DNA of 64,000 nt, taken from an uncultured Candidatus Binatia bacterium (GTDB lineage Bacteria > Desulfobacterota > Binatia > UBA9968 > JAJDTQ01). The stretch covers positions 128,001 through 192,000 of the forward strand of contig OZ243916.1 in NCBI GenBank assembly GCA_965213675.1. Direction: 5' to 3'. This document shows positions 1,638 to 22,275 of the stretch, piece after piece (position 1 is the stretch's first letter; every line of letters starts with the position of its first letter). Made by a program: the position numbers and the translations under genes. The notes below the pieces were generated by a model that was given only the letters and a program-made list of their open reading frames with translations, was not told the origin of the DNA and searched no databases.

Positions 1638-3566
1638 TCAGGCCGCGACCTTGGCCGTGGACATCCGCCGCGCCAGTGGCCGTGCCAGCCCGGCCGCGGC
1701 CAGAAGCACGCCGATGATGTCGGTCATCATGCCCGGCGCGATGAGCATGATGGCGGCCACGAACACCACCACCCGCTCCACCGCCTCGGTCCGGTCCTTC
1801 AAGTCGCCGACCAGGGCATAGGCATTGAGGATCACCCCGGCGGCCGCCGTCGCCGTGGTCAGAACGATGTCAACGGGATGCCCGCGCATCAGCAACGGCG
1901 TGCCGAACACGAAGGCGTAGGGGAGGATGTAGACCGGCAACGAAATCAGTCCCGCGAACAGGCTGGTGCGCCAGAAATCGCTGCCGGCGACGGTGGCGCC
2001 GGCATAGGCGGCCAAGGCCACGGGCGGCGTCACCATGGACAGCATGCCGGAGAAGAAGATGAACAGATGCGCGGCCATGGGCCAGACGCCCACCTTGATG
2101 AGCACGGGCGCCACCATCAGGGCCAGAATGATATAAGCGATGCTGGTGGGCAGTCCCATGCCCAGAATCATGGAGGCGAACATGGTGAGCAGCAGAATGA
2201 TGATCAGTTCTCCCCCCGCCATGCCGATGACGAGACCCGAGAAGCGCGTGGCCAGACCGGTCATCAGGATGGTGCCCATGATGATGCCGACGCACGCCAC
2301 CGCGGTGCCCAAGGTGACGAAGTCCCGGCCAGTACCCTCGAATACGTCGATGCCCTTCTTGACGGCGCGCCAGGCTCCGGCGGGGGCCGTCTTCACGAAC
2401 CCGCGCCGGTCCCGCACGAACATGGCAATGGCCGCGATGCTCACCCCCAGCACCGCGATGACCGTCATGGCCCGCAACACCGCCTGGACCGGCGACATCC
2501 GCGCCAGCAGCAGCACGATGAGCAGGCCGATGCCGGCGATGAACGTCAGCCCCTGGGGCTCGCGCACGACTTCCCGGATGTTGGGCAGTTCGGACTTCGG
2601 CAAACCCGTGAGCCCGGAGCGCAACGCGTAGAAGTAGACGCCCGCCAGAACCCCGATGAAGTACAGCACTGCCGGAATGAGTGCGGCCTTGACGATCTGG
2701 AGATAGTCCACTGCCAGGAACTGCATCATCAGGAACGCCGCGGCCCCCATCACCGGCGGCATGAACTGCCCGCCCGTGGACGCGGCCGCCTCCACCGCTC
2801 CAGCCACGTGAGGCTGGAACCCCACGCGTTTCATGAGCGGGATGGTGATGGACCCCGTGACCATGACGTTGGCCACGGCGCTGCCGCTCACCGATCCCAT
2901 CATGCCGCTGGAAACCACGGCCATCATGGCGGGGCCGCCGCGGTATCGTCCCACGAGGGAACGGGTGAACTCCATGATGAACGCCAGCGCTCCGGTGGCC
3001 TCCAGCAGCTTGCCGAACATCACGAACAGGTACACGAACTTGAAGGTGATGTAGGTGGCGACGCCGAAGACGCCGTTGCCGGACAGGTAGACGGTGGTGA
3101 CGATGCGGTCGAGGTCGAAGCCGCCGTGGCCCCCCACCCAGCGCGGCAGGTGCTGGCCGTAGAAGACGTAGACCAGAAACACCAGTGCGGTGACAACCAG
3201 CGCCATGCCGACGATGCGCCGGGTGGCCTCCAGCACCACGATGACACAGATGACCCCCAGCACCAGGTCGGTCTGGGTGACGAGTCCCGACTTGAAGGCG
3301 ATCTCCTCGTGCTCGATGAACACGTAGCCGAAGGTCGCCAGACTGAGCGCCAGCCAGAAGAGGTCCAACGCCACCTGGGCTGGCCGCTCACGCTCCGTCG
3401 CCTGGGTCAGGAACAACAGGACGAACAGGACGAGCAGGAAAAGGCTGCGTTCCTGAAGCGGCGGCAACGGACTGAAGGCGTTCCACACGGCGTAAGCCGA
3501 CAGTCCGATGGCCAACACCCGCGTGAGGGTCCGGCCTATGGCTCTCAGGGCGCCTTCTCCTTCCAA
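1638..3566 (-). CDS. TRAP transporter fused 4TM/12TM permease
   Basis: GSVSGSAVANV, ASTGGQFMPPVMGAAAF, GMGLPT, TPPVALAAY motifs. Confidence 0.93.
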   Translation of the reverse strand: MEGEGALRAIGRTLTRVLAIGLSAYAVWNAFSPLPPLQERSLFLLVLFVLLFLTQATERERPAQVALDLFWLALSLATFGYVFIEHEEIAFKSGLVTQTDLVLGVICVIVVLEATRRIVGMALVVTALVFLVYVFYGQHLPRWVGGHGGFDLDRIVTTVYLSGNGVFGVATYITFKFVYLFVMFGKLLEATGALAFIMEFTRSLVGRYRGGPAMMAVVSSGMMGSVSGSAVANVMVTGSITIPLMKRVGFQPHVAGAVEAAASTGGQFMPPVMGAAAFLMMQFLAVDYLQIVKAALIPAVLYFIGVLAGVYFYALRSGLTGLPKSELPNIREVVREPQGLTFIAGIGLLIVLLLARMSPVQAVLRAMTVIAVLGVSIAAIAMFVRDRRGFVKTAPAGAWRAVKKGIDVFEGTGRDFVTLGTAVACVGIIMGTILMTGLATRFSGLVIGMAGGELIIILLLTMFASMILGMGLPTSIAYIILALMVAPVLIKVGVWPMAAHLFIFFSGMLSMVTPPVALAAYAGATVAGSDFWRTSLFAGLISLPVYILPYAFVFGTPLLMRGHPVDIVLTTATAAAGVILNAYALVGDLKDRTEAVERVVVFVAAIMLIAPGMMTDIIGVLLAAAGLARPLARRMSTAKVAA

Positions 3567-3697
3567 GACCTCACCTCGTCCTTCCGAAAGGGTGCGTCTA
3601 ACTCTTTGGTCATGGCGATACCGGCGGCATCGGACCGGCGGCGCCGCAAACGATGGGCGCCGGCGGTCCGATTGCCGCGATCACGTGACCATGAAGC

Positions 3698-4681
3698 CTA
3701 CTCCTTCCAGAGACCGGCTTCCTTCCAGTAGCGCACGGCCCCCGGATGATAGGGAACGCCGATCTGGGTGGTCAGGACCGCAGGGTTGAGTTGGGCGTAC
3801 TTGAAGTAGCGCACGTCCTCCGCCAACTTGCCCAGGTTTTGGTGAATCATCTTGATGACGTTGTAGACCAGTTCCTCGTCAGCGTCCGCCCGGACGGTGA
3901 GCAGGGGGCCGCCGATGTCGAACGTCTCGACCGCCTTGTCGAAGGTGGGCGTGTTGGCGGGAATGGTCTGCCGCGTCATGTACGGAAACTGCTCGACCAT
4001 CTTGTCGACGGCCTGGGGCTCCGGCGCCAGATACCGCGCGCCCTTTTCGGCGTGCAGGCGCAGGGCCGCGGGGATCGGGCTCAGCCCGGAAACCATGGTC
4101 GGCATGGCCACGATGTTGCCGTCGCCGAGTTGCGTGTAGAGGTCGCTCATGCCCGCGTACACGGGCTTGAAGTCCTCCTTGTAGGTCAGGCCGTGAGCCT
4201 TCATCAACGGGACCATGAAGGCGTCCCAGGTGCGGCCGGTGCCCACGCCCACGCGATGTCCCTTGAGGTCGGCGAACGAGTTGATGGGGCTGCCGGGCAG
4301 GGTGTGAAGCGTGAAGGCGTTGGGGTAAAGGCCCATGACCAGGGCCAGGGGATGCTTTTTCTTGAACGTCAGGACTCCGTGGTACGCCGGGTACGAGTTG
4401 TTGGACGCGATGACGCCCATGAAGATCTGTTTGCGGTCGATCAGGCGCACGTTCTCGCGCGAGCCTTCGGTCACCGCCGCGGTTACCGGGATCTTCATCT
4501 GATCTTCCAGCAGCTTGGCGACGCCCCCCGCCACCACGTAGAACGCGCCGCCGATGCTGGCGCCGCCGATCTCGAGGCTGGACGGCATCTCCGCCGCGGT
4601 TGCCCGCTGGGGGCCGGATGCCCACGCCATGGCCGCCACGGCCACCGCTGCGAGCAGCGTCTTGAATCTCGGACTCTTCAT
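3698..4681 (-). CDS. TAXI family TRAP solute-binding subunit
   Basis: Signal peptide, GGAFY, TEGSRENV, PYHPGAVRYWKE; upstream of the fused permease. Confidence 0.93.
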   Translation of the reverse strand: MKSPRFKTLLAAVAVAAMAWASGPQRATAAEMPSSLEIGGASIGGAFYVVAGGVAKLLEDQMKIPVTAAVTEGSRENVRLIDRKQIFMGVIASNNSYPAYHGVLTFKKKHPLALVMGLYPNAFTLHTLPGSPINSFADLKGHRVGVGTGRTWDAFMVPLMKAHGLTYKEDFKPVYAGMSDLYTQLGDGNIVAMPTMVSGLSPIPAALRLHAEKGARYLAPEPQAVDKMVEQFPYMTRQTIPANTPTFDKAVETFDIGGPLLTVRADADEELVYNVIKMIHQNLGKLAEDVRYFKYAQLNPAVLTTQIGVPYHPGAVRYWKEAGLWKE

Positions 4682-4818
4682 GCAAAACCTCCTTCTGGGT
4701 AGAAGTTACGACGCGCCGCCATGGATATGCGGCCGGACGAATTGGCGTAAAATAGGATGGATCGGGGTGCCGGTCAAGCCAAAAGAAACGCTCGTGTCGC
4801 GGCTGCGTTCGGAGGAAA

Positions 4819-5616
4819 TTACTGGAACGGCCCACCGCGGTAACCCAGCACCACGATCTCGGTCTTGCGCGGCAGCGCCGCCTTGCTGAGGGGTAGGGAT
4901 CCGTGGGGCACGGTGCGCATGGGGAAGCCTTCGGTGAAGATGCGCACGCGCTCGAGATCGTCGCGGTAGTGCATGGGGATCGCGATCTTCGGTTCGAGTT
5001 GTTCCACCACGCTACGGGCGGTCCAGGGTCCCATGGTGGTGCGCCCGCCGATGGGCACCAGCGCCACGTCCACCTTGCCGAACTGCTGCAGTTGCTTGTC
5101 CGTGAGCCGGTGGGCCAGGTCTCCCAGGTGCGCCACGCACAGCCGGCCGAGATCGTACACAAAGGCCGCGCCCTTGAAGAGGTCGCCGTTGGGCCGGCTG
5201 ACGTAGATGGGCACACTGGAGATGCGCACGTCCTTGACCGTGGCGCGCACCTGGTTCCATTCGTATGCGACCGGGGTTTCCCGAAGGCCTCGGAGAATCA
5301 GCGGCCGGCCGCGCACGATGGGGATCCAGTTGTGGTTCTCGTGCTCCCTGCCGATGGTGACGGCGTCCGCGGACACGTCCGGCGTGGGGTACCAGCCCGG
5401 CGCGAGCGGATCCATGACGATGCGCGTGCCCCGATGGGTGACGAGTTGAAAAAAGCTGTGGCCGAAGTAGTTCAAGGTGGCGTCGGGCGCGGCGGCATAC
5501 GCGGGCCGGAAGAAGCGGCTCGCGAAGCTCTCCTCCTTGCAGGCGGCGAACAGCGCGCCGTGGCAGAACACGAGGAAAACGGTGGCGATGATCGCGGCAC
5601 GGCGCGCTGTACGCAT
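4819..5616 (-). CDS. Exported MBL-fold metallo-hydrolase (Lactamase_B_3-like)
   Basis: YFGHSFF, VMDP, REHENHN, HLGDL, IPMHY; signal peptide from MRTARR. Confidence 0.85.
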   Translation of the reverse strand: MRTARRAAIIATVFLVFCHGALFAACKEESFASRFFRPAYAAAPDATLNYFGHSFFQLVTHRGTRIVMDPLAPGWYPTPDVSADAVTIGREHENHNWIPIVRGRPLILRGLRETPVAYEWNQVRATVKDVRISSVPIYVSRPNGDLFKGAAFVYDLGRLCVAHLGDLAHRLTDKQLQQFGKVDVALVPIGGRTTMGPWTARSVVEQLEPKIAIPMHYRDDLERVRIFTEGFPMRTVPHGSLPLSKAALPRKTEIVVLGYRGGPFQ

Positions 5617-5830
5617 CTCCCCAACCTTTCCGACAAGACCGACGCCGGCGTTGTGAACCGGAATTCCGGGAAAAGGCACGGAACCGCAGCCATCTTCGCC
5701 CAAGGTTTTTCGTTTGACAAGCTCACGGTCCCTGCCATAGAAGGGGCGTTGAGCGTAGCCAAAGGCAGGTGCCCGCCCATGCGCGCGCCGAGCTCCCACA
5801 GGAGTCAAACCCGAAAAGGAGGACATCCTT

Positions 5831-6865
5831 ATGAAGGCATTATACCTGACCGTCGCGCTTCTCTTCCTGACCGCATCCGCGGCGTGGGGCCAGAGCGAAA
5901 TGGTCAAGAAGCTGGCCAACTACAAGGGAGCGGATTACCACCAGATGCTGGAGGCGGGCGCCAAGAAAGAAGGCAAGGTGGTGTGGTACACGTCGCTGAG
6001 CGGCAAGTCCTACAAGACCATCCAGTCGGGCTTTGCCAAGAAATACCCGGACGTGAAGATTGAGGTCTACCGCGCGGGCAGCAAGGATATCGCCGCCAAG
6101 ATCCTCGCCGAGCACAAGGCCGGCAAATACCTCGTGGACGCCATCGAGAGCACGCCGGGGATCCTGCAGTTGCTCCGTGAGCGGAACATCATCACTCCCT
6201 ACAGCAGCCCGGAGCACAAGAGATGGCCGGATGAACACCAGACCAAGGCCAGTAGCGGCGGGGTTTGGTGGGTCACCGACCGCGAATCTTTCATCGGCCT
6301 CGGATACAACACCGACAAGATGCCCAAGGACAAGGCGCCCAAGAGCTTCGACGACCTCCTGGACCCTTCTCTCAAGGGCAAGATCGTCATGAGCGTGCAG
6401 AGCACCGGCGACCGGATGCTGTCGAGCATGATCAAGGTCAAGGGCGAGGAATACGTCGAGCAGCTCAAGAAGCAGCAGGTCAAGCTCGTGAAGATCTCGG
6501 GTACGGCCACTCGCGACCTGATCATCTCGGGCGAGTTCGTGGTGTCGCCTTCCGTGTTCCGCAATCACGCCCTCGTGAAGATCGCCGAGGGCGCCCCCAT
6601 CGGTTGGAACGCGTTGGACGAAGTTCCGACCAACGCCGGCGGCTCCGCGATTTTCGCGAATTCGCCGCACCCTCATGCCGCGTTGCTTCTTACCAACTTC
6701 GTCCTGACCGAGGGACAGCAGATCCTGCAGAAGTTCCACTACGGCATGGCGTGGCTGGACTATCCGTTCAAGCGGGTGTACCCCGAACGGGGAATGAGCT
6801 CGAAGGACTACAACAGGGTCTCCAAGAAGCTCAACAAGCAGTTGCGTTCCATCGGCCGCCGCTGA
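5831..6865 (+). CDS. ABC transporter extracellular solute-binding protein (Fe3+/thiamine-like family)
   Basis: Signal peptide, AKKEGKVVWYTS, PHPHAALL, EGQ; SD AGGAGG. Confidence 0.9.
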   Translation: MKALYLTVALLFLTASAAWGQSEMVKKLANYKGADYHQMLEAGAKKEGKVVWYTSLSGKSYKTIQSGFAKKYPDVKIEVYRAGSKDIAAKILAEHKAGKYLVDAIESTPGILQLLRERNIITPYSSPEHKRWPDEHQTKASSGGVWWVTDRESFIGLGYNTDKMPKDKAPKSFDDLLDPSLKGKIVMSVQSTGDRMLSSMIKVKGEEYVEQLKKQQVKLVKISGTATRDLIISGEFVVSPSVFRNHALVKIAEGAPIGWNALDEVPTNAGGSAIFANSPHPHAALLLTNFVLTEGQQILQKFHYGMAWLDYPFKRVYPERGMSSKDYNRVSKKLNKQLRSIGRR

Positions 6866-7004
6866 TGGACTTTACCGGCCACCTTCCCTTGGCGTTCCGT
6901 GCGGATCACCGCGGCGCCCCGGGGCAGCGACCCCGCCCCCGGGCGCCCGGTGAGTGCACGCCACGGCCGTGCACGGGCCAGAGTATCACCAGGAAACTCC
7001 GACG

Positions 7005-12602: not shown

Positions 12603-12833
12603 CTACGTGAACAGTTTTACGATGATGGCGATGAGTCCCGCAAGTATGGTCAGGGCCCCCAAAGCCATTTTGCTCTCGAGCTTGGAAATGTCCGCCTTTG
12701 TGGCCAGGTGCGGAAGAGTCGATTCAAAGGCCGTCTCCAGCCGGGTGATGTCCGTCTTGGTGGCCAAGTGCGGAAGAGTCGATTCGAAGCCTGCCTCCAG
12801 CCGCGTGATGCGTTCTTCCGTTCCGTTCGCCAT
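12603..12833 (-). CDS. Small coiled-coil repeat membrane-anchored protein (DUF1640/CCDC90/Bdr-like)
   Basis: SD GGAGG; two 20-aa repeats ITRLExxFESTLPHLATKxD; C-terminal TM helix. Confidence 0.8.
   Translation of the reverse strand: MANGTEERITRLEAGFESTLPHLATKTDITRLETAFESTLPHLATKADISKLESKMALGALTILAGLIAIIVKLFT
12691..12810. repeat. 2 x 60-bp intragenic tandem repeat
   Basis: Units 12691-12750 and 12751-12810 are near-identical. Confidence 0.9.
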
Positions 12834-13037
12834 GATTGCCAACCTCCCGTTATCCAACCCTGCCGCCATCTTGACCGCGGCCGCCATGAAAATCAACGGT
12901 TTTGAACATGGGTCCACCCCAAGAGCCTTCGCGGTAGTTTGCCCAACGAATCCCTGCTGACTATATTTGGAAGCGCGTTGCTTCCCAGCTCCGCGCACAC
13001 ATGCCTTCAGCGACATCACACGAGAGGAGAATGCACC

Positions 13038-13898
13038 ATGCCCAGACCGCGCCCCATCCAGTGGCCGGACAATGCCAAGATTTGCGTCACTTTCATCATT
13101 CCGTGGGAGGTGTGGCCGGACAACTACGCCACCCGCGGTTCCCTCCAGCGCGTCAGCCATCCGCTGCCGCCGGAGAACGCCGTCTTCAAGCAGAACATGG
13201 CCGCGGTCACCGAGCGCGAGTACGGGGACCGGGTCGGCATCTGGCGCATCATGGACATGTTCGAGCGGCACAATCTCAAGGTCACCTTCCTGATGAACGG
13301 CAAGAAGGTGGAGCAGTTCCCCGACGAGTGCAAGGAGTTTCAGGCCCAGGGGCACGAGTTTTCCTCGGAGTGTTACGAGCACGAATACGCGTTCATGTAC
13401 ACGCGGGAAGAAGAGCGGAAATCCATCCAGGATACGGTGGCCGCCTTCAGGAACGTCCTCGGCGCGCCTCCCACCGGCTATCTGTCGCCCGGTCACGCGT
13501 CCACGAACAACACGCTGGACTTGGTGGCGGAGGCTGGGTTCGTGTGGTGGGCCGACCCGCTCAATTCGGACATCCCCTATACCGTCGAGGCCGGCGGACG
13601 CAAGGTCGCGGTGGTGCCGTACAACGTGCCGGGGTGCAACGACTACTCCACCTACGGCGGTGGTCGCACGCCTCGTGACCTGCTCCAGATCATGAAGGAT
13701 CAGTTCGACTACCTCTATTGGGAAGGTGAACAGGGCGCGCCCAAGTTCTTCGCCTTCAATCTCCACCCGTTCGTCTCCGGTGTGCCCTACCGCACCCGGA
13801 TCGTCGACGAGTTCATCAAGTACGCCAAGGGCTTCAGCGATGTCTGGTTCGCGCGCCGTCTGGAGATCGCCAACTGGGTGCTGGATCAGGGTTACTGA
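13038..13898 (+). CDS. Polysaccharide deacetylase family protein (PuuE-like)
   Basis: IQWPDNAKI, EYGDRVGIWRI, PTGYLSPG, NLHPFVSGVPYR, VWFA. Confidence 0.9.
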   Translation: MPRPRPIQWPDNAKICVTFIIPWEVWPDNYATRGSLQRVSHPLPPENAVFKQNMAAVTEREYGDRVGIWRIMDMFERHNLKVTFLMNGKKVEQFPDECKEFQAQGHEFSSECYEHEYAFMYTREEERKSIQDTVAAFRNVLGAPPTGYLSPGHASTNNTLDLVAEAGFVWWADPLNSDIPYTVEAGGRKVAVVPYNVPGCNDYSTYGGGRTPRDLLQIMKDQFDYLYWEGEQGAPKFFAFNLHPFVSGVPYRTRIVDEFIKYAKGFSDVWFARRLEIANWVLDQGY

Positions 13899-13910
13899 CA
13901 CCGTGTCTCG

Positions 13911-14723
13911 TCATGGTGGCGGGTCGTTGGGAAGACGGCTCATGACGGCGCCGAGTTCCAGAGTCCTGCCGTACACGCTGCGCGCACAGTCGCTGAGGAG
14001 GAAGGCCGCCACCGCGGCGACCTCCCCGGCCGACGGGACGTCACTTTCCCGGCACGGGCGCCTGTCCCCGATTGCCGTCCCCGCGGGCGGCGGTTCCGGC
14101 TCACCCGGCGCCGGATCGGACTCGGGCCGCACCCGGCCGGCGCGTATGGGGCGCCGCCAGAAGGGCGGCGGCTTCAGGACGTTCAGGGTGACATTATCCT
14201 GAGCGGCTTCCGTGGCGACGCCATGCAACCATGCCGTGAGCGCGGCGTCGGTGGCGGCACGGACGCTGCCCCCAGCGCCGTTGCGATCCTCCGGCCATGG
14301 AACCATCCAGAGGACGCGCCCCCAGCACCGGCTCCGCATTCCGCGAAGAAGAGTCTCCGTGAGCGCCCTGAAGCGCAGGAATCCGTCGTCGAGCCGGGCG
14401 CTCCAGTCGGGGTTGCCCTGTCCATCGTCCCGCAAGGCGTGCCGGACGATGCCGAACAGGATATCGATGGCGCCGAAGTCGCGTGCGATCCGCTCCACCT
14501 GGCCGCCGGCCGACGCTTCGCTCCACGCCTCCAGGGGGTAGCCGGCGGTCCGGACGCCACCCCGCTCCGCGGCTTCGGCGGCCACCCGTCGCGCCGCCCA
14601 TTCCTTGCGCGCGCACACGGCCACGTTGGCGCCCTCGGCGGCCAGCGCTCCGGCCACGGCCCGGCCGATGCCGCGAGATCCGCCGAAGACCAGTGCGCTG
14701 CGGCCCTTGATGCCCAGGTCCAT
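13911..14723 (-). CDS. SDR-family protein, catalytically degenerate
   Basis: MDLGIKGRSALVFGGSRGIG Rossmann start; NAG and YxxxK motifs absent. Confidence 0.8.
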   Translation of the reverse strand: MDLGIKGRSALVFGGSRGIGRAVAGALAAEGANVAVCARKEWAARRVAAEAAERGGVRTAGYPLEAWSEASAGGQVERIARDFGAIDILFGIVRHALRDDGQGNPDWSARLDDGFLRFRALTETLLRGMRSRCWGRVLWMVPWPEDRNGAGGSVRAATDAALTAWLHGVATEAAQDNVTLNVLKPPPFWRRPIRAGRVRPESDPAPGEPEPPPAGTAIGDRRPCRESDVPSAGEVAAVAAFLLSDCARSVYGRTLELGAVMSRLPNDPPP

Positions 14724-14735
14724 GCGTCTCTCCGT

Positions 14736-16655
14736 TCATCCTGAATGCGCGAGCGCCGCCGGGGGCGGACCGCTCAGGGCCTCTACCAACTCTGTTTCCC
14801 GGGACATCATGTCGGCGAAGTAGCCGTTTCCGCGGACGAGTTCCGCGGGAGATCCCTGCTCGGTGATCTTTCCCTGGTCGAGACAGATGACCCGGTCCAC
14901 GTGGCGCAGCGCGGACAACCGGTGGGCGATGATGATGACCGTCCGCCCTTGTGCCAAGCCCTGCAGGTTCCGCTGGATGCGCAGCTCGTCCTCCTTGTCC
15001 AGGGCGCTCGTGGCTTCATCCAGAATGAGCAACGCACGCGCATGAAACAACCCGCGCGCCAGCGCCAGCCGCTGCCGTTCACCGCCCGAGAGAAGGCTGC
15101 CGCGGGCGCCGATGGTGGTGGCGTAGCCCTTGGGCATGCGGGTGATGAACTCGTGGGCGCACGCCGCCTTGGCGGCCGCGGTCACCTGCGGCATCTGGCG
15201 CTCGCCCGGTCCCAGCGCGATGTTGTCGGCGATGCTGCGCCGGAAGATCGGATAGTCCTGCTCCACTGCGCCGATGTGAGCGCGCAGCCACGCGGGATCG
15301 ATGATCGTCGCGTCGACGTTGTCGAGGAGCACGCGCCCCTCGTTGGCCAGGTAGAGTCTCTGAATCAACCGGCTGAGGGTGCTCTTGCCTGAGCCCGACG
15401 GCCCTGCGATGCCCACGGTTTCGCCGGGCGCGACATCGAAGGTCACGCCGTCGAGTGCCATCCGGTCGGTGTCCGGATAGCGGAAGCGGACGTCCTCGAA
15501 ACGAATGCCCCCCGTGAAAGCGGGCGGCCGGATGAGGTGCCCGCCGTGGCGCTCCGTCTCCTCGTTGAGCACGGTGGCCAGTTCCTTCACCAGCCCGCGT
15601 GACCGGCCGAAGTCGTACGCGAACAGGCACAGGCGCATCATGGGCTGGGAAAAGCGCATGTTGACCAGGTTGACCGCCACGAGCTGGCCCAGGGTGAGTT
15701 GGCCGTCCAGGACCATGGAGGCGCCGAACCAGAGCAGCCCGGCCGTGGCGAGACGGTTCACGAACTGGTTGTACTGGGTCGTGGATTCGCGCAGGTCTTG
15801 CGTGTCCTCCTCCGATGCCACCGCGGCGTCCACACGGTCGACGAGGAAGTCTTCCTGGGCCCTCACCTCGTTCATGCCCTTGACGGTCTCGATGCCGGTG
15901 AAGGTGTCGAGCACCGCCTCGTTGCTTTCCCGCCGGTTCCCGCGGGTGCGCCGGGTCCATCGCCGCAATGTCGGCATCACCACAAAGGCCGGAGCGATGT
16001 AGAGGGGAAGGGAGGCCAGGATGATCATCGACAACGTCAGGCTGAAATTCAGCATCAGCGCCAGGAAGACGACCACGAAGACGACGTCGACGAACACGAA
16101 CACCACGGCGTTGGTGAGGAAGCGCCGCAGTTGCTGAAGCTCCTCGATGCGGGAGAGGGTCTCCACCGGGGTGTTGCGGAGGTAGAAGGACGCGGGCAGC
16201 TCCAGCGAGTGACGAATGAGCCGCGACAGCAGCGTGCGGTCCATGTGGCGCACGGCCCGGCGCAGCGCGCGGTGGCGCGCCGCGCGCAGGATGGCTTCGA
16301 ACAACAGGAAGAAGAGCAGGCTGACGATAATGACGTCGAGGGTGGCGGCGCCCCGGTTGGACAGGACCTTGTCGATGATGATCAGGAAGGCGAAAGGGTA
16401 GATGTAACCCAGGAGGTTGACGAAGAAGGACGCCGCCACCAACGGTCCGAAGACAGCCTTGTTGTGGAATATGTGCTTCGCGACGGAGGCGAGCGAGAAC
16501 TCCGCGTCTTCCCCTTCGACGGGACTCGCCGGCCTCTCCGCGGGATCGCCGGTGGGCTCCACGCGCGGTCGGGCCCGGCCCGGCGCACCCGCGCCCCGGG
16601 GGCGGGCGCCGGCCGGCCCACGGCCCTCAAGCCTGTGCTGCGTCGCGGGCGTCAT
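14736..16655 (-). CDS. HlyB/bacteriocin-type ABC exporter (TMD+NBD) without C39 peptidase domain
   Basis: IIIDKVL, GQLTLGQLVA, GPSGSGKSTL, LSGGERQR, ILDEATSALD, IIAHRL. Confidence 0.92.
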   Translation of the reverse strand: MTPATQHRLEGRGPAGARPRGAGAPGRARPRVEPTGDPAERPASPVEGEDAEFSLASVAKHIFHNKAVFGPLVAASFFVNLLGYIYPFAFLIIIDKVLSNRGAATLDVIIVSLLFFLLFEAILRAARHRALRRAVRHMDRTLLSRLIRHSLELPASFYLRNTPVETLSRIEELQQLRRFLTNAVVFVFVDVVFVVVFLALMLNFSLTLSMIILASLPLYIAPAFVVMPTLRRWTRRTRGNRRESNEAVLDTFTGIETVKGMNEVRAQEDFLVDRVDAAVASEEDTQDLRESTTQYNQFVNRLATAGLLWFGASMVLDGQLTLGQLVAVNLVNMRFSQPMMRLCLFAYDFGRSRGLVKELATVLNEETERHGGHLIRPPAFTGGIRFEDVRFRYPDTDRMALDGVTFDVAPGETVGIAGPSGSGKSTLSRLIQRLYLANEGRVLLDNVDATIIDPAWLRAHIGAVEQDYPIFRRSIADNIALGPGERQMPQVTAAAKAACAHEFITRMPKGYATTIGARGSLLSGGERQRLALARGLFHARALLILDEATSALDKEDELRIQRNLQGLAQGRTVIIIAHRLSALRHVDRVICLDQGKITEQGSPAELVRGNGYFADMMSRETELVEALSGPPPAALAHSG

Positions 16656-17487
16656 CGGTGCTCACCAGTGCGAGGCCTTGCGCCGCAAGCTCCTTGATCA
16701 GGTGCCTGCGGGGGTCGTCGGCTTCCGCGCGGGCACTCTCCGCCAACGGTGTCGGATTGCCCGCAGGACCATTTGCCGGGCTTGTCGCGGCAGCAGTCCT
16801 GTCGCCCACGGCCCCGGCGGCGAGGGAACGCCATTCTCGGGAGCCTTCCAGCAGGGTGAAGGCCTCCGGCGCCAACTCCAGAACCCTGGGACGTCGCCGT
16901 CCACGGGTCGCGAGTATCACCATGTGCACCCTTCGTTCCGTCACCGGCTCACGGGAGCGGGTGGGCTCGAACAGGGCGCGCACGTCGTGCCGGCATTGCA
17001 CGAGGCCCGCGCACGGATGTGTCCGGTACCAGAAGCCCGGCTCTTGGGGCCGCGCCGCCAATACATCGCTCTCCATGCCTGCGGGGCGCAGCGTCCGTGC
17101 CCATGCCAGCGCCAGCTCGATGGCCGCGACGTCCGCGGTCCAGGGCGGCCGCGGCGGTTGGTCGACGTCCGGTGCGAGGAACCGTTGGAAGAAACGTTCA
17201 GCGTCCGGGTAGCGCTCATAGGTCCGCGGCGGGCACGCCGTGGCGTAGTCGCGGGCGAGGGCCGGGAACCCGTGTCCCAGCAGCGTGGCGGTGCGCTCGA
17301 ACGTCTGGCGGAGGCGCGCCATGCGCTTGTTGTACGAGAATTCGGCTTCCAGGCGCAGCCGCCCCACATCCATGCCATGAAGCTCGGGGTCCCGGACCGC
17401 GGAGTCGAGGTCGGGAGTCCCGAAGATGAGGGCCGGGCTGGTCAGGTGCCGCAGCAGATGGGTCTGTCTGTCAATGAGCCGGTGCAT
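16627..17487 (-). CDS. MNIO partner protein (DUF2063/HvfC/BufC-like)
   Basis: RLRQTFERTATLLG..FPALARDY...PP, W.ADVAAIELAL; C-terminal winged-helix-like LIKELAAQGL; overlaps the DUF692 stop. Confidence 0.75.
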   Translation of the reverse strand: MHRLIDRQTHLLRHLTSPALIFGTPDLDSAVRDPELHGMDVGRLRLEAEFSYNKRMARLRQTFERTATLLGHGFPALARDYATACPPRTYERYPDAERFFQRFLAPDVDQPPRPPWTADVAAIELALAWARTLRPAGMESDVLAARPQEPGFWYRTHPCAGLVQCRHDVRALFEPTRSREPVTERRVHMVILATRGRRRPRVLELAPEAFTLLEGSREWRSLAAGAVGDRTAAATSPANGPAGNPTPLAESARAEADDPRRHLIKELAAQGLALVSTDDARDAAQA

Positions 17488-18358
17488 GAATCATACTCCC
17501 TTCGCTTGTGGAGGCGGCTCTGGCCACCTGCCGGCGGAGCCGCGTCACGTCCGCCAGAAGCTCATCTCCCTGTTCGTAGTCGTTGTCCCGCTCCAGGATC
17601 ACCGTTCGGGGGCGCTGGCGGTCGAGGGCGTACTCCAGGAGATCCAGTGCTTGTTGGGGCACGGGGTGGCTGTGGTTGTCGGCGTGGAAGGGTACGTCGA
17701 GGTAGGGCCGCTGGATGAGAGGACCCCCGGCCGCATGCACCCCGGTCACCACGCCCTCGGGCAGTTGGTCGAGAAACGCCAGCGGATCGACGCCATGGTT
17801 CGAGGCGTTGACGAACAGGTTCTCCACGTCCAGCAGCATGCCCACGCCGGTCTCGCGGAACAGCAGGTTGAAGAACTCCGCGTCGTTCATCTCCGCGTTC
17901 GGAAAGTCGAAGACGTACGAGATGTTCTCGATGGCGAAGGGCACCGGCAAGTGCGCCTGGACCCGCTCGATCTTGCGGATGAGCATGTCCGCGGCGGCGC
18001 GGGTCTTGGGCACCGGCAGCAGGTTGGCGAGGTCGATGCCGGGAACCTTGGTCCAGGCGAGGTGTTCGCTGTAGGACGGAATCTTCAGGTCCTCGATGGT
18101 TTCCGCCACCGCGTCGAGATAGGCCTCGTCCAGGGGAGCGTCGGTGCCGATGGAAAGCCCCACGCCGTGCAGGACAAGGGGCACCCGGTCCACCAGGTTT
18201 TGGATGGCCCGGCGCGCGTAGTCGCCGCCCTTGATGTAGTGGTCCACCGTGACCTCCAGCACGTCGAAGCGGTGCAGGTTCGCCAGCGTCCACTTGGCGA
18301 CGGGAACACGGAAGCCGATGCCGATAAGGGGGGACTCGGATGGAATTGAACTGTTCAT
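17471..18358 (-). CDS. DUF692 family multinuclear non-heme iron oxidative enzyme (MNIO; MbnB/TglH/ChrH/HvfB/BufB family)
   Basis: GIGFR, HGVGLSIG, SEHL, IENIS, LLDVENL, HAAGG, DNH, LERD; SD GGAGG. Confidence 0.95.
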   Translation of the reverse strand: MNSSIPSESPLIGIGFRVPVAKWTLANLHRFDVLEVTVDHYIKGGDYARRAIQNLVDRVPLVLHGVGLSIGTDAPLDEAYLDAVAETIEDLKIPSYSEHLAWTKVPGIDLANLLPVPKTRAAADMLIRKIERVQAHLPVPFAIENISYVFDFPNAEMNDAEFFNLLFRETGVGMLLDVENLFVNASNHGVDPLAFLDQLPEGVVTGVHAAGGPLIQRPYLDVPFHADNHSHPVPQQALDLLEYALDRQRPRTVILERDNDYEQGDELLADVTRLRRQVARAASTSEGSMIHAPAH

Positions 18359-18658
18359 GGAACCTCCCGACTCGAAATGAAATCATGAGCCCGGCGCTTG
18401 CCGCGTCCGGCACGCACCGGTCTTTGCGAGCGCTGCGCCGCCTTTCACGGCCGCGCTACGTCCTCACAAGTATCAATCGAAAGGTGGTCGCTGAACTTTA
18501 GCCCCGGCCGCTGAAAAACTCCGCGAGCGGCCGGGTCGGTGTGGAACGGAGCGCTATGCGAAAGCTGTGGTATCCGCTTGCGCTCCGACAGGGGAGGTCT
18601 GAAATGGTCAGGGAATTGGCAGGGCCGCCTGTGTGGGGCAACCCTACCGGGCTAACTA

Positions 18659-18817
18659 GTGTGGTGTCTGGTTAATACGCGTCATAATCTGCGGGTCTTT
18701 TTCGCCGTCGGCTGCGTTGCTCTTCCTCGCGTGGTACACGCCACTGCTCGTCATCGCGCCTTGCCGACGACAAAAAATCCTCCGCAGATTATGACGCGAA
18801 TTAACCAGACACCACAC
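18659..18817. mobile_element. MITE family A, copy 2; supplies the last codons and stop of the 18801-19826 gene
   Basis: TIR GTGTGGTGTCTGGTTAAT...ATTAACCAGACACCACAC; CTAG at left junction; same core as copy 1. Confidence 0.8.
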
Positions 18818-19826
18818 TGGCGAGTTCCATGCCCACAATCCGTGCCGGATTGCGGGTGCAGACCGTATACAACTCGTCCTGGTGCAACCCGAATGCCTCC
18901 ATGTAGCCGCGGATAAGGCGCATGGCTTCCACGGAGTCGGGAAACAGCGGCTCGCCGGCATCGCTCGACAGCGCGAAGTGCTCGACCCCCACCTCGCGGA
19001 TGGTGTTGTACATGATCTGGGGATCGACGCCGAGAAGCGGCGACAACTCATCGAAGGTGAAGTTGAACAGGACGCCCAGGGGCGCCAGCTCCTTCATCTG
19101 CTCCACCGATACGTCGAGAAAGGGGCTGTAGGGATGGTCGATGACCAGCCGTGCGAGCCCCGCCTTGTGCGCCTCCTCGGCGATCTTGAAGATCTCCTTG
19201 TGGGTGGGGTGGCCGAAGAACAGCGCCACGTCCCGCTCCACGCACAGCCGGATGACATCCCTGACCTCGGGCTTCAACGTCCCCGATGCGTCGAGGTTGT
19301 AGCGGCCGTGCTCCAGGGCCTTTTCCCAGGAAAGGGGACCCATCCAGCCCTGAGCGTTCATGTCGTGCTCGATGAGTTCCCGGCGGCTGCCCACGATGTG
19401 CATGGTGTTCGCGTGGTTGAAGACCGGCAGCCACAAGGCGACGACGCCGTCGTCGATGGCTCGTTCCGCCAGCTCCGCCGACACCGGTTCGTCGTTGCGG
19501 CCGCACACGAAGCCGGCGAACAGGGCCACTGGCGCGACCCCTTCCTCCGCGGCCCACGCGTCGAGTTGCGCTTGCAGTTCGCGAACCGCCGTCCCTGCCT
19601 TGCCCACGATGGACTTGAACAGGATGCCCTTCATCCCGGCCCGGGAAGCCTTCTTCACCAGGTCCAGGGCATCCTGCTGGCCGGCGTGGGCGTGGCAGTG
19701 GATGTCGATGGCGTCCTGGACCTTGACGTGGCCGGGATGGACCACGCCGGGCTTGTACTGGGTGCGCGCCGCGTAGGAGGTGACGCACCGCTCCTGGGTC
19801 GGGGTAGAGACCACGTTGTCACTCAT
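18801..19826 (-). CDS. DUF6282-like amidohydrolase-fold metalloprotein
   Basis: IDIHCH, WLPV, FFGH, IDHP, SSDAG, NPARI. Confidence 0.8.
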   Translation of the reverse strand: MSDNVVSTPTQERCVTSYAARTQYKPGVVHPGHVKVQDAIDIHCHAHAGQQDALDLVKKASRAGMKGILFKSIVGKAGTAVRELQAQLDAWAAEEGVAPVALFAGFVCGRNDEPVSAELAERAIDDGVVALWLPVFNHANTMHIVGSRRELIEHDMNAQGWMGPLSWEKALEHGRYNLDASGTLKPEVRDVIRLCVERDVALFFGHPTHKEIFKIAEEAHKAGLARLVIDHPYSPFLDVSVEQMKELAPLGVLFNFTFDELSPLLGVDPQIMYNTIREVGVEHFALSSDAGEPLFPDSVEAMRLIRGYMEAFGLHQDELYTVCTRNPARIVGMELASVVSG

Positions 19827-19932
19827 CGCCTTCTCCCTTCACTGGCCAGGCACGGCCGCCGGAACCGGCTTGCCGTGCGCCATGAGACCGGTTCATATTA
19901 GACCCTCGAAAACCGGAACGGAAGAGGCGGAC

Positions 19933-20946
19933 ATGGATGGAACCGAGTATCTCACGCCCCTCGAGGCGTCGGTGGCGCTGGGCCTTGCCCTGGGCGCCGT
20001 CTACGGCGCGCTGGCCCAGCGCAGCCGATTCTGCCTGCGCCGCAGCCTGGTGGGGCAATGGAGGGAATGCCGGCCGGCGCTCGGCGTCTGGGCCATGGCG
20101 TTTGCCCTGGCCATCGCCGGCACGCAAGGCGCGGTGTCCGCGGGGTGGATCTCCTTCGATGCGCACCGGTTCCTGGCCCCCGACCTGCCCGTCGTCGCGG
20201 TTGTCGTGGGCGGCGCCCTGTTCGGCGCCGGCATGGTGCTCAGCGGCGGCTGCGCCTCCCGGCTCGCGGTGCTGAGCGGTTCCGGCAACCTGCGCGCAGC
20301 CCTTGTTCTGGTGGTCTTCGCGGTGGTCGCGTACGCGATGATGAAGGGTGTGCTGGCGCCGCTGCGCTCGGCGCTCGCCGGGTGGACGCTGGATCCCGGC
20401 GGCAGAGTGACACTGGCGGCTCTGCCCGGCGGGGACGTCTGGATCTGGGGCCTGGCGCTCGCTGCGGGGACCCTGGCGTTCCGCTCCGGAGCGGACCCGC
20501 GCCATGTCGCCATGGGCGCCGCCATCGGGCTGCTGGTGCCGCTGGGGTGGGTCGGCACCGGTTTTGTTCTCCTGGACGACTTCGATCCCGTGCCGCTTCA
20601 GTCCTTGAGTTTCACCGGACCCATGGCCGACACGCTGTTCTGGAGCATGGCGGCCACCGCGGTTCCGGCGGGCTTCGGCACCGGCCTGGCCGCCGGCGTA
20701 TTGGGTGGCAGCCTTGTGGCGGCGGTCCGCGCGGGCGAGTTCCGTTGGATCAGCCTGGAAGGGCCGCGGCAGACCGGACGTTACATGGCCGGCGCGGCGT
20801 TGATGGGGACGGGCGGCGTGCTGGCGGGTGGATGCACGGTGGGGGCCGGACTGTCGGGCGTGTCCACCGGCAGCATCGCCGCGACCCTGGCGCTCATGGC
20901 CATGGCGCTGTCAGCCAGGACGGTGGGGAAGCTGATCCGAGGATAG
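19933..20946 (+). CDS. YeeE/YedE family sulfur-compound transporter
   Basis: RFCLR, GMVLSGGCAS, GGVLAGGCTVG; many TM helices. Confidence 0.92.
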   Translation: MDGTEYLTPLEASVALGLALGAVYGALAQRSRFCLRRSLVGQWRECRPALGVWAMAFALAIAGTQGAVSAGWISFDAHRFLAPDLPVVAVVVGGALFGAGMVLSGGCASRLAVLSGSGNLRAALVLVVFAVVAYAMMKGVLAPLRSALAGWTLDPGGRVTLAALPGGDVWIWGLALAAGTLAFRSGADPRHVAMGAAIGLLVPLGWVGTGFVLLDDFDPVPLQSLSFTGPMADTLFWSMAATAVPAGFGTGLAAGVLGGSLVAAVRAGEFRWISLEGPRQTGRYMAGAALMGTGGVLAGGCTVGAGLSGVSTGSIAATLALMAMALSARTVGKLIRG

Positions 20947-20985
20947 CCGCCCCTCAAACGCTTTCCGTTCATGGCCTCTGGAGGA

Positions 20986-22275
20986 TCAGCCGAAGAGGTC
21001 CCTGGAGAAGGCCGCGTACCAACCGACGGATTCCTCGTAGGTGGCCTTGCGTACCTCGGCGCTCTCTCCGGTCTTGGAGATGAAGCCGTCGGTCTTGGCG
21101 ATCTTCTCGTCGGTGGCCTTGTAGGAGGCGCCGACCTTGACGCCGTCATCGGTGGCGATCAGCGACCAGCAGGTGTTGCGGAAGCGCGCCGGGAATGCCT
21201 TCGAGCCGGTCAGCGCCGCGCGCACCGCCATGGCGCACACCTTGGCCTGACTGTTGGCGGAGAACCCGGACTTGGGCATGTCCCCTTGCTGGGAAGCGTC
21301 GCCGAGCACGTGAATGTTCTCGTCCGCACGGCTTTGCATGGTGTGGGGCGCCACCGGCGCCCAGCCCGCTTCGTTGGTGATCCCGGCCGCCGCCGCGATG
21401 CGGCCCGCCTGCTGCGCCGGAATCACGTTGCAGACATCCACCTTGGTGACCTCGCCGTCGATCACCACCTCCATGGAACCCGGGCGCACCGCCACCTTGT
21501 CGCCGCCGAAGTCCGGACCGACCCGCTCGATCATGCCGGGGTAGTGGCGCTGCCAGCCTTCCTCGAATAGCCCCTGCTTGGAAAACTTCGCCTTGGGGTC
21601 GACGATCAGTATCTTGGCCGTCGGGTTGGATTGCTTCAGCGTGTGCGCGACCATCGAGATGCGTTCGTACGGTCCCGGGGGGCAGCGAAAGGGGTTCGGC
21701 GGCGCCACCATGCAATAGACGCCGCCCTGTCGCATGGCCGCCACCTGGGCCTTGAGGAGCTGGGTCTGCGAGCCCGCCTTGTAGGCGTGGGGCATGCGGT
21801 TCTGATGCGACAGGTCCCAACCAGGCACCGAACCTGGGCGGAAGTCGATGCCGGGGGAGAGGATCAACCGGTCGTAGGCGAGGCTGCCGCCGCCGGCGAG
21901 TCCGATCCGCTTCTTTCCCCTATCCACGGACACGGCCCAGTCGTGGACCACGTTGATACCGTAGGCCGACGCCAGGGTTCCGTAGGAATGCCCGATGGAC
22001 GCGAAGCTGCGGAACCCGCCGAGGTAGAGGTTCGAGAAGAAGCATGAGTAATAGTGCCGGGAGGGCTCCACCAGGGTCACGTCGATGGCGCCTTTCGAGT
22101 CCTTGGCGAGGTAGCGCGCGGCCGTGGCTCCGCCGGCGCCGCCGCCGATCACCACCACCCGCGGGCGGCTCTGGCCGAGGATGGGTGAGGCCCACAACGC
22201 CGCCGACGTGGCGGCGGTGGATGCCAAAAAGCGGCGCCGGCTCAGGCCGCGGTTCTTGTGATCCCTTTTCGACAT
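20986..22275 (-). CDS. soxF: Flavocytochrome c sulfide dehydrogenase flavoprotein subunit
   Basis: Tat signal SRRRFL, GGGAGG, CFFSN, CPPGPYER, MPKSGFSANSQAKVC. Confidence 0.93.
   Translation of the reverse strand: MSKRDHKNRGLSRRRFLASTAATSAALWASPILGQSRPRVVVIGGGAGGATAARYLAKDSKGAIDVTLVEPSRHYYSCFFSNLYLGGFRSFASIGHSYGTLASAYGINVVHDWAVSVDRGKKRIGLAGGGSLAYDRLILSPGIDFRPGSVPGWDLSHQNRMPHAYKAGSQTQLLKAQVAAMRQGGVYCMVAPPNPFRCPPGPYERISMVAHTLKQSNPTAKILIVDPKAKFSKQGLFEEGWQRHYPGMIERVGPDFGGDKVAVRPGSMEVVIDGEVTKVDVCNVIPAQQAGRIAAAAGITNEAGWAPVAPHTMQSRADENIHVLGDASQQGDMPKSGFSANSQAKVCAMAVRAALTGSKAFPARFRNTCWSLIATDDGVKVGASYKATDEKIAKTDGFISKTGESAEVRKATYEESVGWYAAFSRDLFG

Follow-up and report, generated by a model that had tools for sequence, protein, structure and literature searches.

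An MNIO operon and dispersed Cys-Gly/Cys-Ser repeat precursors in an uncultured Binatia bacterium: a candidate peptide modification and export system

The window analysed here is a 64,000-nucleotide (nt) stretch of an uncultured Candidatus Binatia bacterium (assembly GCA_965213675.1, contig OZ243916.1, positions 128,001 to 192,000). It contains an operon encoding an MNIO (DUF692) enzyme, its partner protein, an HlyB-like ATP-binding cassette (ABC) exporter and a degenerate short-chain dehydrogenase/reductase (SDR). We propose, with a probability of roughly three in four as judged from comparative sequence analysis, that the MNIO and its partner act on peptides with (CG)n/(CS)n repeats encoded in trans, i.e., that they belong to a dispersed modification and export system akin to those of peptides made on the ribosome and modified after translation (RiPPs). 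The window operon would most likely represent the enzymatic and export core of this system, as a reduced fragment of a unit comprising seven to eight genes. The initial annotation of the window had described a four-gene architecture that it did not recognise. The MNIO system indeed appears to be new, but four genes are not the whole of it. The four genes of the operon are the following:

17471-18358, minus strand: MNIO (DUF692) enzyme, 295 amino acids (aa), PF05114
16627-17487, minus strand: MNIO partner, DUF2063-like, 286 aa, with a helical DUF2063-like domain followed by a beta-rich C-terminal domain
14736-16655, minus strand: HlyB-like ABC exporter (transmembrane domain and ATPase), 639 aa, ABC_membrane and ABC_tran
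13911-14723, minus strand: pseudo-SDR, 270 aa, Pfam adh_short

The MNIO and partner genes overlap by 17 nt, the partner and ABC genes by 29 nt, and a gap of 12 nt separates the ABC gene from that of the SDR. Coordinates, strand and gene order are exactly those first given for four co-oriented genes that overlap or abut.

The MNIO, its partner and the Cys-repeat precursors

The MNIO matches PF05114 with 253 bits (E 3.7e-75, cutoff 25) over positions 2-260 of the 263 of the model. The best NCBIfam models are those of BufB (206.7 bits, cutoff 310) and HvfB (187.3 bits, cutoff 360), and the protein stays below the cutoff of every characterised subfamily (e.g., 40.4 bits against 325 for MbnB, TIGR04159). 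Its clade is distinct from the characterised ones; a grouping with one of these, which would have told against the initial interpretation, was not observed. Its best structure match is 3BWW. Motifs HG, SEHL, EN, LDVEN, HAGG, DNH and ERD are invariant in all 14 clade members, and so are residues H64, H99, E144, D177, N180, H208, D227, H229 and E256, for which identical residues align in the solved MNIOs 3BWW, TglH and MbnB. The motifs had been reported as intact from the window sequence alone and the alignments bear this out; we take their invariant His, Asp, Glu and Asn residues to be the iron ligands. The gene is present in a single copy in the genome holding the window (hereafter G000), a metagenome-assembled genome (MAG) of 4.5 Mb in 21 contigs with an estimated contamination of 8%.

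The partner protein has a sub-threshold match to DUF2063 (19.1 bits, cutoff 27.2) and carries a 25-aa insertion near its C-terminus. Its predicted structure (pLDDT 81.5) retrieved MNIO partners as the three top PDB matches, TglI twice (8hi7_A, E 1.4e-4) and NGO1945 once (3dee, E 6.9e-4), while MbnC ranked lower. A search of the partner profile against PDB chain sequences returned nothing relevant, the likeness being visible by fold search only. The model thus predicts that the partner adopts the MNIO-partner fold.

To place the operon in its genus, 20 loci from 14 genomes were fetched and the window proteins were mapped on each. MNIO and partner are found in all 20 loci, as is a match to the ABC exporter, and the SDR is found in 17. 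The latter two genes are consequently conserved neighbours of the MNIO rather than chance ones, a point on which the significance of the operon had been made to depend. Comparison with the three nearest relatives gave dN/dS values of 0.14-0.18 for the MNIO, 0.17-0.27 for the partner, 0.22 for the ABC exporter and 0.34-0.44 for the SDR; the values for the first three (0.14-0.27) indicate that these genes are under purifying selection.

A six-frame scan of the whole genome for CG repeats returned four open reading frames (ORFs), none of them inside the window. Three of them bear a common leader, and the fourth, which lacks the leader motif, is the only such ORF in 4.5 Mb and represents the background of the scan. 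The three leader-bearing ORFs are located as follows:

C1:3906075-3906593: precursor ORF, leader-bearing
C1:3910951-3911130: precursor ORF, leader-bearing, short
C17:72768-72947: precursor ORF, leader-bearing

A shorter precursor remnant lies between the two ORFs of contig C1. The gene of the 164-aa precursor, at C1:3906075-3906569, starts with ATG seven bases after GGGAGGAG, and that of the short precursor with GTG nine bases after AAGGAG.

Twenty loci with precursors encoded in trans were fetched from 15 genomes of the genus and 19 of them gave a precursor passing our filter. Together with five precursors from loci L019, L025, L029, L034 and L059, these form a set of 24, of which 23 start with ATG behind a GGAGG-like site. 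Their leader of 31-32 residues reads M..(A/I)VPWxLD..E(D/E)LDLE(I/V)HG, and W17, L26-D27-L28-E29 and G32 are invariant in all 22 sequences of the alignment. The leader is followed by a core of CG and then CS dipeptides, by an acidic Asp-, Glu- and Ser-rich tail and often by a Gly/Ala-rich C-terminal part. Because start codons with GGAGG-like sites are nearly universal in the set and the leader residues are invariant, the sequences argue that the precursors are real genes. The proteins measure 36-270 aa, contain 12-18 Cys and have a net charge of -5 to -46. None of the 23 examined has an N-terminal hydrophobic segment, the maximal 12-residue Kyte-Doolittle mean over the first 36 residues being at most 1.23 (a hydropathy check, not a signal-peptide predictor). 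The initial annotation had postulated a substrate encoded in trans, either dispersed peptides or a type-I-secreted protein; the first of these suggestions agrees with what was found, while the second gained no support, the candidates being leader-bearing Cys-repeat proteins. The family occurs both in trans in G000 and beside orthologous MNIO genes in other loci.

No family model of Pfam or NCBIfam matched the precursors. A profile search of 5.8 billion proteins, in which the 8000 best word-sharing candidates were scored, gave 45 matches; all of them are MAG or metagenome proteins, have no Pfam domain and, where named, are named only 'hypothetical protein'. The precursors therefore constitute a conserved CG/CS-repeat family that is unnamed in both databases, and the literature searched contained no description of CG-repeat MNIO precursors or of a Binatia RiPP.

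Several loci bring precursor and MNIO together. In L025, the ORF directly upstream of the MNIO gene ends 6 nt before its start and reads WVLDPRNDDLDLEVHG followed by CGCGCGCDCGCDSC; in L029 about 86 nt separate the end of the precursor ORF from the start of the MNIO, and a similar ORF occurs in L019. A precursor is also found directly upstream of the MNIO in two alphaproteobacterial MAGs (L065 and L067, 49-50% MNIO identity). Another alphaproteobacterial MAG contig, L059 (68% MNIO identity), carries in order a precursor, an S9 peptidase, the MNIO, the partner, an ABC exporter with a C39-like domain, HlyD, a TauD-like dioxygenase and two integrase genes. Of the eight alphaproteobacterial loci, seven have a (CG)3-9 ORF no farther than 10 kb from the MNIO; the leaders of these ORFs differ, and the partner adjoins the MNIO in all eight loci. 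Within the genus, HlyD and TauD-like genes come after the precursor in 4 of the 20 trans loci (L071, L072, L073 and L077); since the same pair sits in the MNIO operon of the longer loci described below, this arrangement links the precursor to the operon.

Co-distribution points in the same direction. Among 24 other genomes of the genus, 22 encode an MNIO of the window type (78-92% identity); in 16 genomes from two sister families there is none, save for one match of 30% identity. Of 28 genus genomes, 27 contain the leader-core DNA motif (0 with a reversed-pattern control), which is absent from all 63 genomes searched in the rest of the order. The sole genus genome without the motif, G014, has no MNIO either, while G019 (76% complete) has the motif without an MNIO match. 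Because these genomes are kin, this co-distribution stands for one or a few evolutionary events and not for 27. A predicted complex of MNIO, partner and precursor residues 1-62 scored 0.70, as compared with 0.65 for a control in which the MNIO was replaced and 0.01 with unrelated partners; we give it no weight in either direction.

Some of the loci examined have features of their own. In L059, four unknown genes lie on one side of the cluster (2088-6978) and two phage-type integrase genes on the other (17534-19701); as integrase genes flank the cluster, it may lie on a mobile island. In L068, an alphaproteobacterial MAG locus, a 786-aa ORF (16065-18425) located 6 kb downstream of the MNIO has an ..ETEG(CG)7CSC core, after which come Ala/Glu/Asp repeats of great length, and could be a giant form of precursor. 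L020 is a decaying second or third copy of the cluster, next to copy L019, in which only a fragment of the ABC gene is left. In L022 the ABC gene is split over two frames and the ORF upstream matches the acidic tail of the precursors only.

Export genes, accessory genes and their layout

The ABC exporter of the window has intact ATPase motifs (Walker A, signature, Walker B and H-loop). It scores 532.6 bits with the HlyB model TIGR01846 (cutoff 725.55) and aligns from model position 120 only, which means that the N-terminal C39-like domain is absent; in the alignment of orthologues, this corresponds to a deletion of about 105 aa. By contrast, the ABC gene is longer by ~400 nt at its 5' end in 13 of the 20 genus loci, where it encodes in frame an extra domain of ~105-130 aa. 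In the HlyB and LssB models, it is the N-terminal part to which this domain aligns; with Pfam Peptidase_C39 it gives 13-15 bits in all three proteins tested. From its sequence, at what we take to be the motif positions, neither the catalytic Cys nor the catalytic His appears to be present. The orthologue of L016, which possesses the domain, reaches 538.8 bits with the HlyB model and is likewise below the cutoff. An exporter devoid of a C39 domain, as initially reported, is thus correct for the window but is no trait of the system. The domain is also missing in the closest relatives (L014 and L015) and in several other loci, among them long loci that retain HlyD and TauD (L030, L031, L032, L054 and L058). 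We read its loss as a sublineage event.

In all eight loci where 2.4 kb separate the ABC and SDR genes, this spacing encodes an HlyD-family adaptor and a TauD/TfdA-like dioxygenase, and L054 and L058 are two further such loci. In G000, both genes lie 68 kb from the MNIO, outside the window:

C1:214608-215876: HlyD adaptor, 70% identity by tblastn, 329.7 bits with TIGR01843 (cutoff 208.65)
C1:213606-214562: TauD-like dioxygenase, 61% identity by tblastn, passes Pfam TauD

The absence of HlyD and TolC genes from the neighbourhood, remarked upon initially, holds for the window, but the HlyD gene has been retained and relocated together with the TauD-like gene. The TauD-like protein has an HxD motif (FHAD), followed further on by a His, read from the sequence, with which the usual iron-binding set would be complete. 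Two TolC-like (OEP-family) genes are encoded in G000 far from the operon and are putative partners only. At 3.3 kb upstream of the HlyD gene in its new place there is a transposase ORF (HTH_Tnp_1); an IS5-like reading of one ORF in this upstream region had no Pfam support and was dropped.

The SDR retains the Rossmann glycine motif GGSRGIG (residues 14-20, a cofactor motif of the TGxxxGxG type). In an alignment to FabG (6t7m), NNAG is lost by deletion and Pro, Arg and Asp occupy the positions of the catalytic Ser, Tyr and Lys, as expected from its first designation as degenerate. The same degeneracy is seen in all 17 genus orthologues aligned and the gene accompanies the cluster into second-copy loci. 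On these grounds, the SDR is best described from its sequence as a catalytically dead yet conserved component of the cluster in Binatia; it is missing from the alphaproteobacterial L059.

These rearrangements raise the question of whether the window operon is a decaying, non-working remnant that has lost its C39-like domain, HlyD, TauD and precursor. The deletion in the exporter, the departure of HlyD and TauD from the locus, a repeat element upstream of the operon, the transposase ORF near the relocated HlyD gene and the decay seen in some second-copy loci of relatives (L020 and L022) would all be compatible with this. Nevertheless, the four ORFs are intact with catalytic or ATPase motifs kept, and the dN/dS values of MNIO, partner and ABC exporter are low (0.14-0.27). 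Intact genes for HlyD, TauD, the S9 peptidase and three to four precursors persist elsewhere in G000, and exporters without the C39-like domain also occur in the five loci named above where HlyD and TauD are still in place. We therefore regard decay as quite improbable and favour a working core whose companion genes are dispersed.

The three or four precursor genes of G000 and its S9 peptidase gene are found 3.76 Mb from the operon and on contig C17. The main precursor locus (3.906-3.911 Mb) comprises three major facilitator superfamily (MFS) transporters, precursor A, a Sel1-repeat protein, the precursor remnant, the S9 peptidase and precursor B. The S9 peptidase has a GDSYGG motif and a signal-like N-terminus and is the sole match in G000, at the threshold used, to the S9 peptidase of L059 (26% identity, E 5e-32). 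Among the 20 trans loci, 5 have an S9 peptidase gene beside the precursor and 8 have MFS arrays. Each array is made up of three or four MFS paralogues that immediately precede the precursor gene (L034, 15236-19694; relatives L074-L090); they could export or import the final peptide or could simply reflect inherited gene order. The end of contig C17 (L035, G000:C17:62000-75173) carries a nearly exact second copy of the short precursor gene and of the C1 remnant.

Substrate assignment, proposed chemistry and relation to known systems

Several points weigh against the assignment of these precursors to the MNIO. The association rests on comparative genomics of related, non-independent genomes, with joint absence observed in G014 only. 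Precursors are distant from the MNIO in most genomes of the genus and, consequently, another enzyme could act on them; G000 itself encodes one YcaO cyclodehydratase. The alphaproteobacterial label of L059 is taken from the MAG bin, and the identity between the S9 peptidases of L059 and G000 is only 26%. Within one genus, the synteny of S9 and MFS genes with precursors may reflect a gene order passed on by descent and not function. The repeated precursor locus on C17 may result from duplication or from strain heterogeneity, the latter being conceivable given the estimated contamination of the MAG. Deprived of its C39-like domain, the window exporter may not recognise the leader. Finally, as the MNIO does not reach the cutoff of any characterised subfamily, the type of reaction is extrapolated.

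Cys-rich repeats can bind metals unmodified. The (CG)n proteins might accordingly not be MNIO substrates at all, acting instead as metallothionein-like binders or being modified by another enzyme such as YcaO, which would install thiazoles, while the MNIO would have some other substrate. The distance between most precursors and the MNIO and the presence of the YcaO would be in line with this possibility. However, the precursor abuts the MNIO in L025, L029, L065 and L067 and is found inside the L059 cluster, i.e., in five loci from two phyla, and its leader is strictly conserved, as is the case in RiPPs. Precursor, HlyD and TauD form an operon in four loci, and no other modifying enzyme is conserved beside the precursors in the loci examined. 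The YcaO, for its part, has its own neighbour resembling a nitrile-hydratase leader peptide (NHLP) and lies 3.8 Mb from the precursors. We consequently judge it unlikely that the precursors escape the MNIO and retain them as its candidate substrates.

The YcaO locus (L091, G000:C1:58000-76000, outside the window) encodes a 786-aa winged helix-turn-helix-YcaO protein and, beside it, an ORF whose N-terminus resembles a nitrile-hydratase leader, together with a desaturase-GlnE-like fusion and MMPL and ABC transporters, and may be a second RiPP system.

In the system that we propose, the partner would bind the conserved leader and present the core to the MNIO, which, with its iron cofactor and O2, would convert each Cys of the Cys-Gly repeats into a thiooxazole-type heterocycle or, alternatively, into an oxazolone-thioamide. 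The TauD-like Fe/2-oxoglutarate dioxygenase would add a further modification (oxidation). The product would leave through the ABC exporter together with the HlyD adaptor and a TolC-like outer-membrane factor, and the signal-peptide-bearing S9 peptidase would then trim it outside the cytoplasm. MNIOs of the BufB/HvfB type make 5-thiooxazoles, and methanobactin has an oxazolone-thioamide. By analogy with these families, the product would be a very Cys-dense, metal-binding peptide, copper being the most likely metal. A scan with PF02461 (pMMO/AMO) gave no match in G000, but none in the control genomes either, so that it does not bear on a link to copper enzymes.

A bolder possibility, which we put forward tentatively, is that these genes define a new class of RiPPs. 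An uninterrupted run of 10-18 Cys-Gly/Cys-Ser would become a continuous chain of thiooxazole-type (or oxazolone-thioamide) groups, oxidised by the TauD-like enzyme, exported by ABC/HlyD and not by Sec, trimmed extracellularly by the S9 peptidase and encoded by a regulon spread over megabases. Uncultured Binatia and some Alphaproteobacteria would then make a redox-active peptide or a polymer that chelates soft metals. If so, such a continuous heterocycle chain would be far denser than that of any described MNIO product.

The closest known systems are bufferins, oxazolin and fontiphorin ('captophorins'), in which an MNIO and a DUF2063 partner act on Cys-rich precursors to make copper-binding 5-thiooxazoles. 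The window system shares with them an MNIO, a partner of DUF2063/RRE-like fold and a repetitive Cys-rich core in which Cys is followed by Gly. This Cys-Gly dyad is the one that FonBC is reported to prefer in the accessible part of the fontiphorin preprint (bioRxiv 10.1101/2025.11.18.689057). As far as they could be consulted, this preprint and the Microbulbifer paper (PMC12538549) describe precursors of the EGKCG type. Captophorin precursors have a Sec signal and EGKCG or DUF2282 sequences, whereas those described here have a cytoplasmic leader and bare CG/CS repeats. Instead of Sec export and DoxX, we find an HlyB-like ABC exporter with HlyD, a TauD-like dioxygenase, an S9 peptidase, a pseudo-SDR and dispersed genes; no DoxX occurred among the neighbours scanned with Pfam, albeit no search was aimed at DoxX.

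One could still view the window as an ordinary locus of the bufferin/captophorin type that has lost its precursor, with the ABC and SDR genes as unrelated neighbours, given that BufB and HvfB are the best NCBIfam models and 3BWW the best structure. Yet the MNIO falls below the cutoffs of both models and the partner below that of DUF2063, the ABC gene follows the partner gene in all 20 genus loci and in L059, and the associated precursors have no N-terminal hydrophobic segment. We hold this view to be highly improbable and favour a distinct, dispersed system.

Methanobactins (MbnA/MbnB/MbnC) resemble the proposed system by their leader-bearing precursor without a signal peptide and by an MNIO and partner carrying out Cys oxidation, ahead of the export of a copper-binding product, the latter steps being what we propose here. 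They differ by 2 core Cys versus 12-18 here, by other transport genes and by the partner, whose predicted fold is nearer to TglI/NGO1945 than to MbnC. Type I secretion and bacteriocin exporters (HlyB/HlyD/TolC and C39-ABC) have in common with our system the HlyB-like ABC, an HlyD above the TIGR01843 cutoff and, in many orthologues, an N-terminal domain. The ABC exporter here is below the HlyB cutoff, its N-terminal domain is missing in the window and its proposed cargo is a modified Cys-repeat peptide.

The adjamnio-I family of Antoine et al. 2025 (PMC12452194) comprises, as outlined in the accessible text, 100 signature-less sequences that measure 122-293 aa and contain 8-21 Cys, in loci consisting of a precursor, an MNIO and a PME-type 2 partner. 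Compared by description only, this outline fits L025 and L029. Five NCBI accessions of MNIO or precursor relatives are absent from supplementary file 1 of that paper as far as it could be consulted, and its Cluster_I list consists largely of RefSeq isolates, whereas our profile matches are MAG or metagenome proteins only. For these reasons, adjamnio-I, set apart here by description and accession check, is probably a different family.

The range of new peptide chemistry and copper-binding natural products traced to MNIO enzymes is growing fast. In almost all described families the precursor is encoded beside the enzyme, and most precursors are exported by Sec. The system described here departs from this scheme by an unnamed CG/CS-repeat precursor family, a distinct MNIO clade, an ABC/HlyD, TauD-like, S9 and pseudo-SDR gene set and the dispersal of its genes. 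Because the genes are scattered across the genome, cluster-based mining would call such an MNIO an orphan and miss its substrates. Seemingly orphan RiPP enzymes may thus be resolved through paralogous and cross-phylum loci.

Operon boundaries and neighbouring genes

The immediate surroundings of the operon in the window are the following:

18359-18800, minus strand: intergenic stretch upstream of the MNIO gene, 442 nt, without a precursor gene, partly a palindromic repeat
18801-19826, minus strand: DUF6282 gene, PF19799
12939-13898, plus strand: polysaccharide-deacetylase gene, convergent, PF01522 (61 bits)

No Cys-rich ORF was found in the 442-nt stretch upstream of the MNIO gene, as the initial annotation had noted, and an Rfam scan of window positions 13000-20000 gave no match. 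A palindromic repeat of ~165 bp, with long inverted arms and of miniature inverted-repeat transposable element (MITE) or repetitive extragenic palindromic (REP) appearance, occupies ~18656-18818; this copy directly follows the stop codon of the DUF6282 gene, and another adjoins the precursor remnant in L034. With well over 50 near-identical copies genome-wide, the repeat was rejected as a common regulatory site of MNIO and precursors.

The DUF6282 gene lies upstream of the MNIO at the primary locus throughout the genus and is missing from second-copy loci L019, L020, L022, L025, L026 and L029 as well as from L059. It is a syntenic neighbour at the primary locus, probably outside the MNIO system. 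More broadly, a block encoding DUF6282, a Sulf_transp membrane protein and the flavoprotein of a flavocytochrome-c sulfide dehydrogenase (18801-22275) is found upstream of the MNIO genus-wide and, because it is missing from the second-copy loci, is probably unrelated to the system.

The deacetylase gene marks the downstream end of the operon and is a syntenic boundary across the genus loci. A 432-aa ORF on the minus strand (12603-13901) was considered as a fifth gene of the operon and rejected, the real gene there being the deacetylase ORF on the plus strand. Between the lytic transglycosylase and deacetylase genes, a short minus-strand frame (12603-12900) contains a tandem ..ITRLE.(G/A)FESTLPHLATK.D.. 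unit and has a hydrophobic C-terminus.

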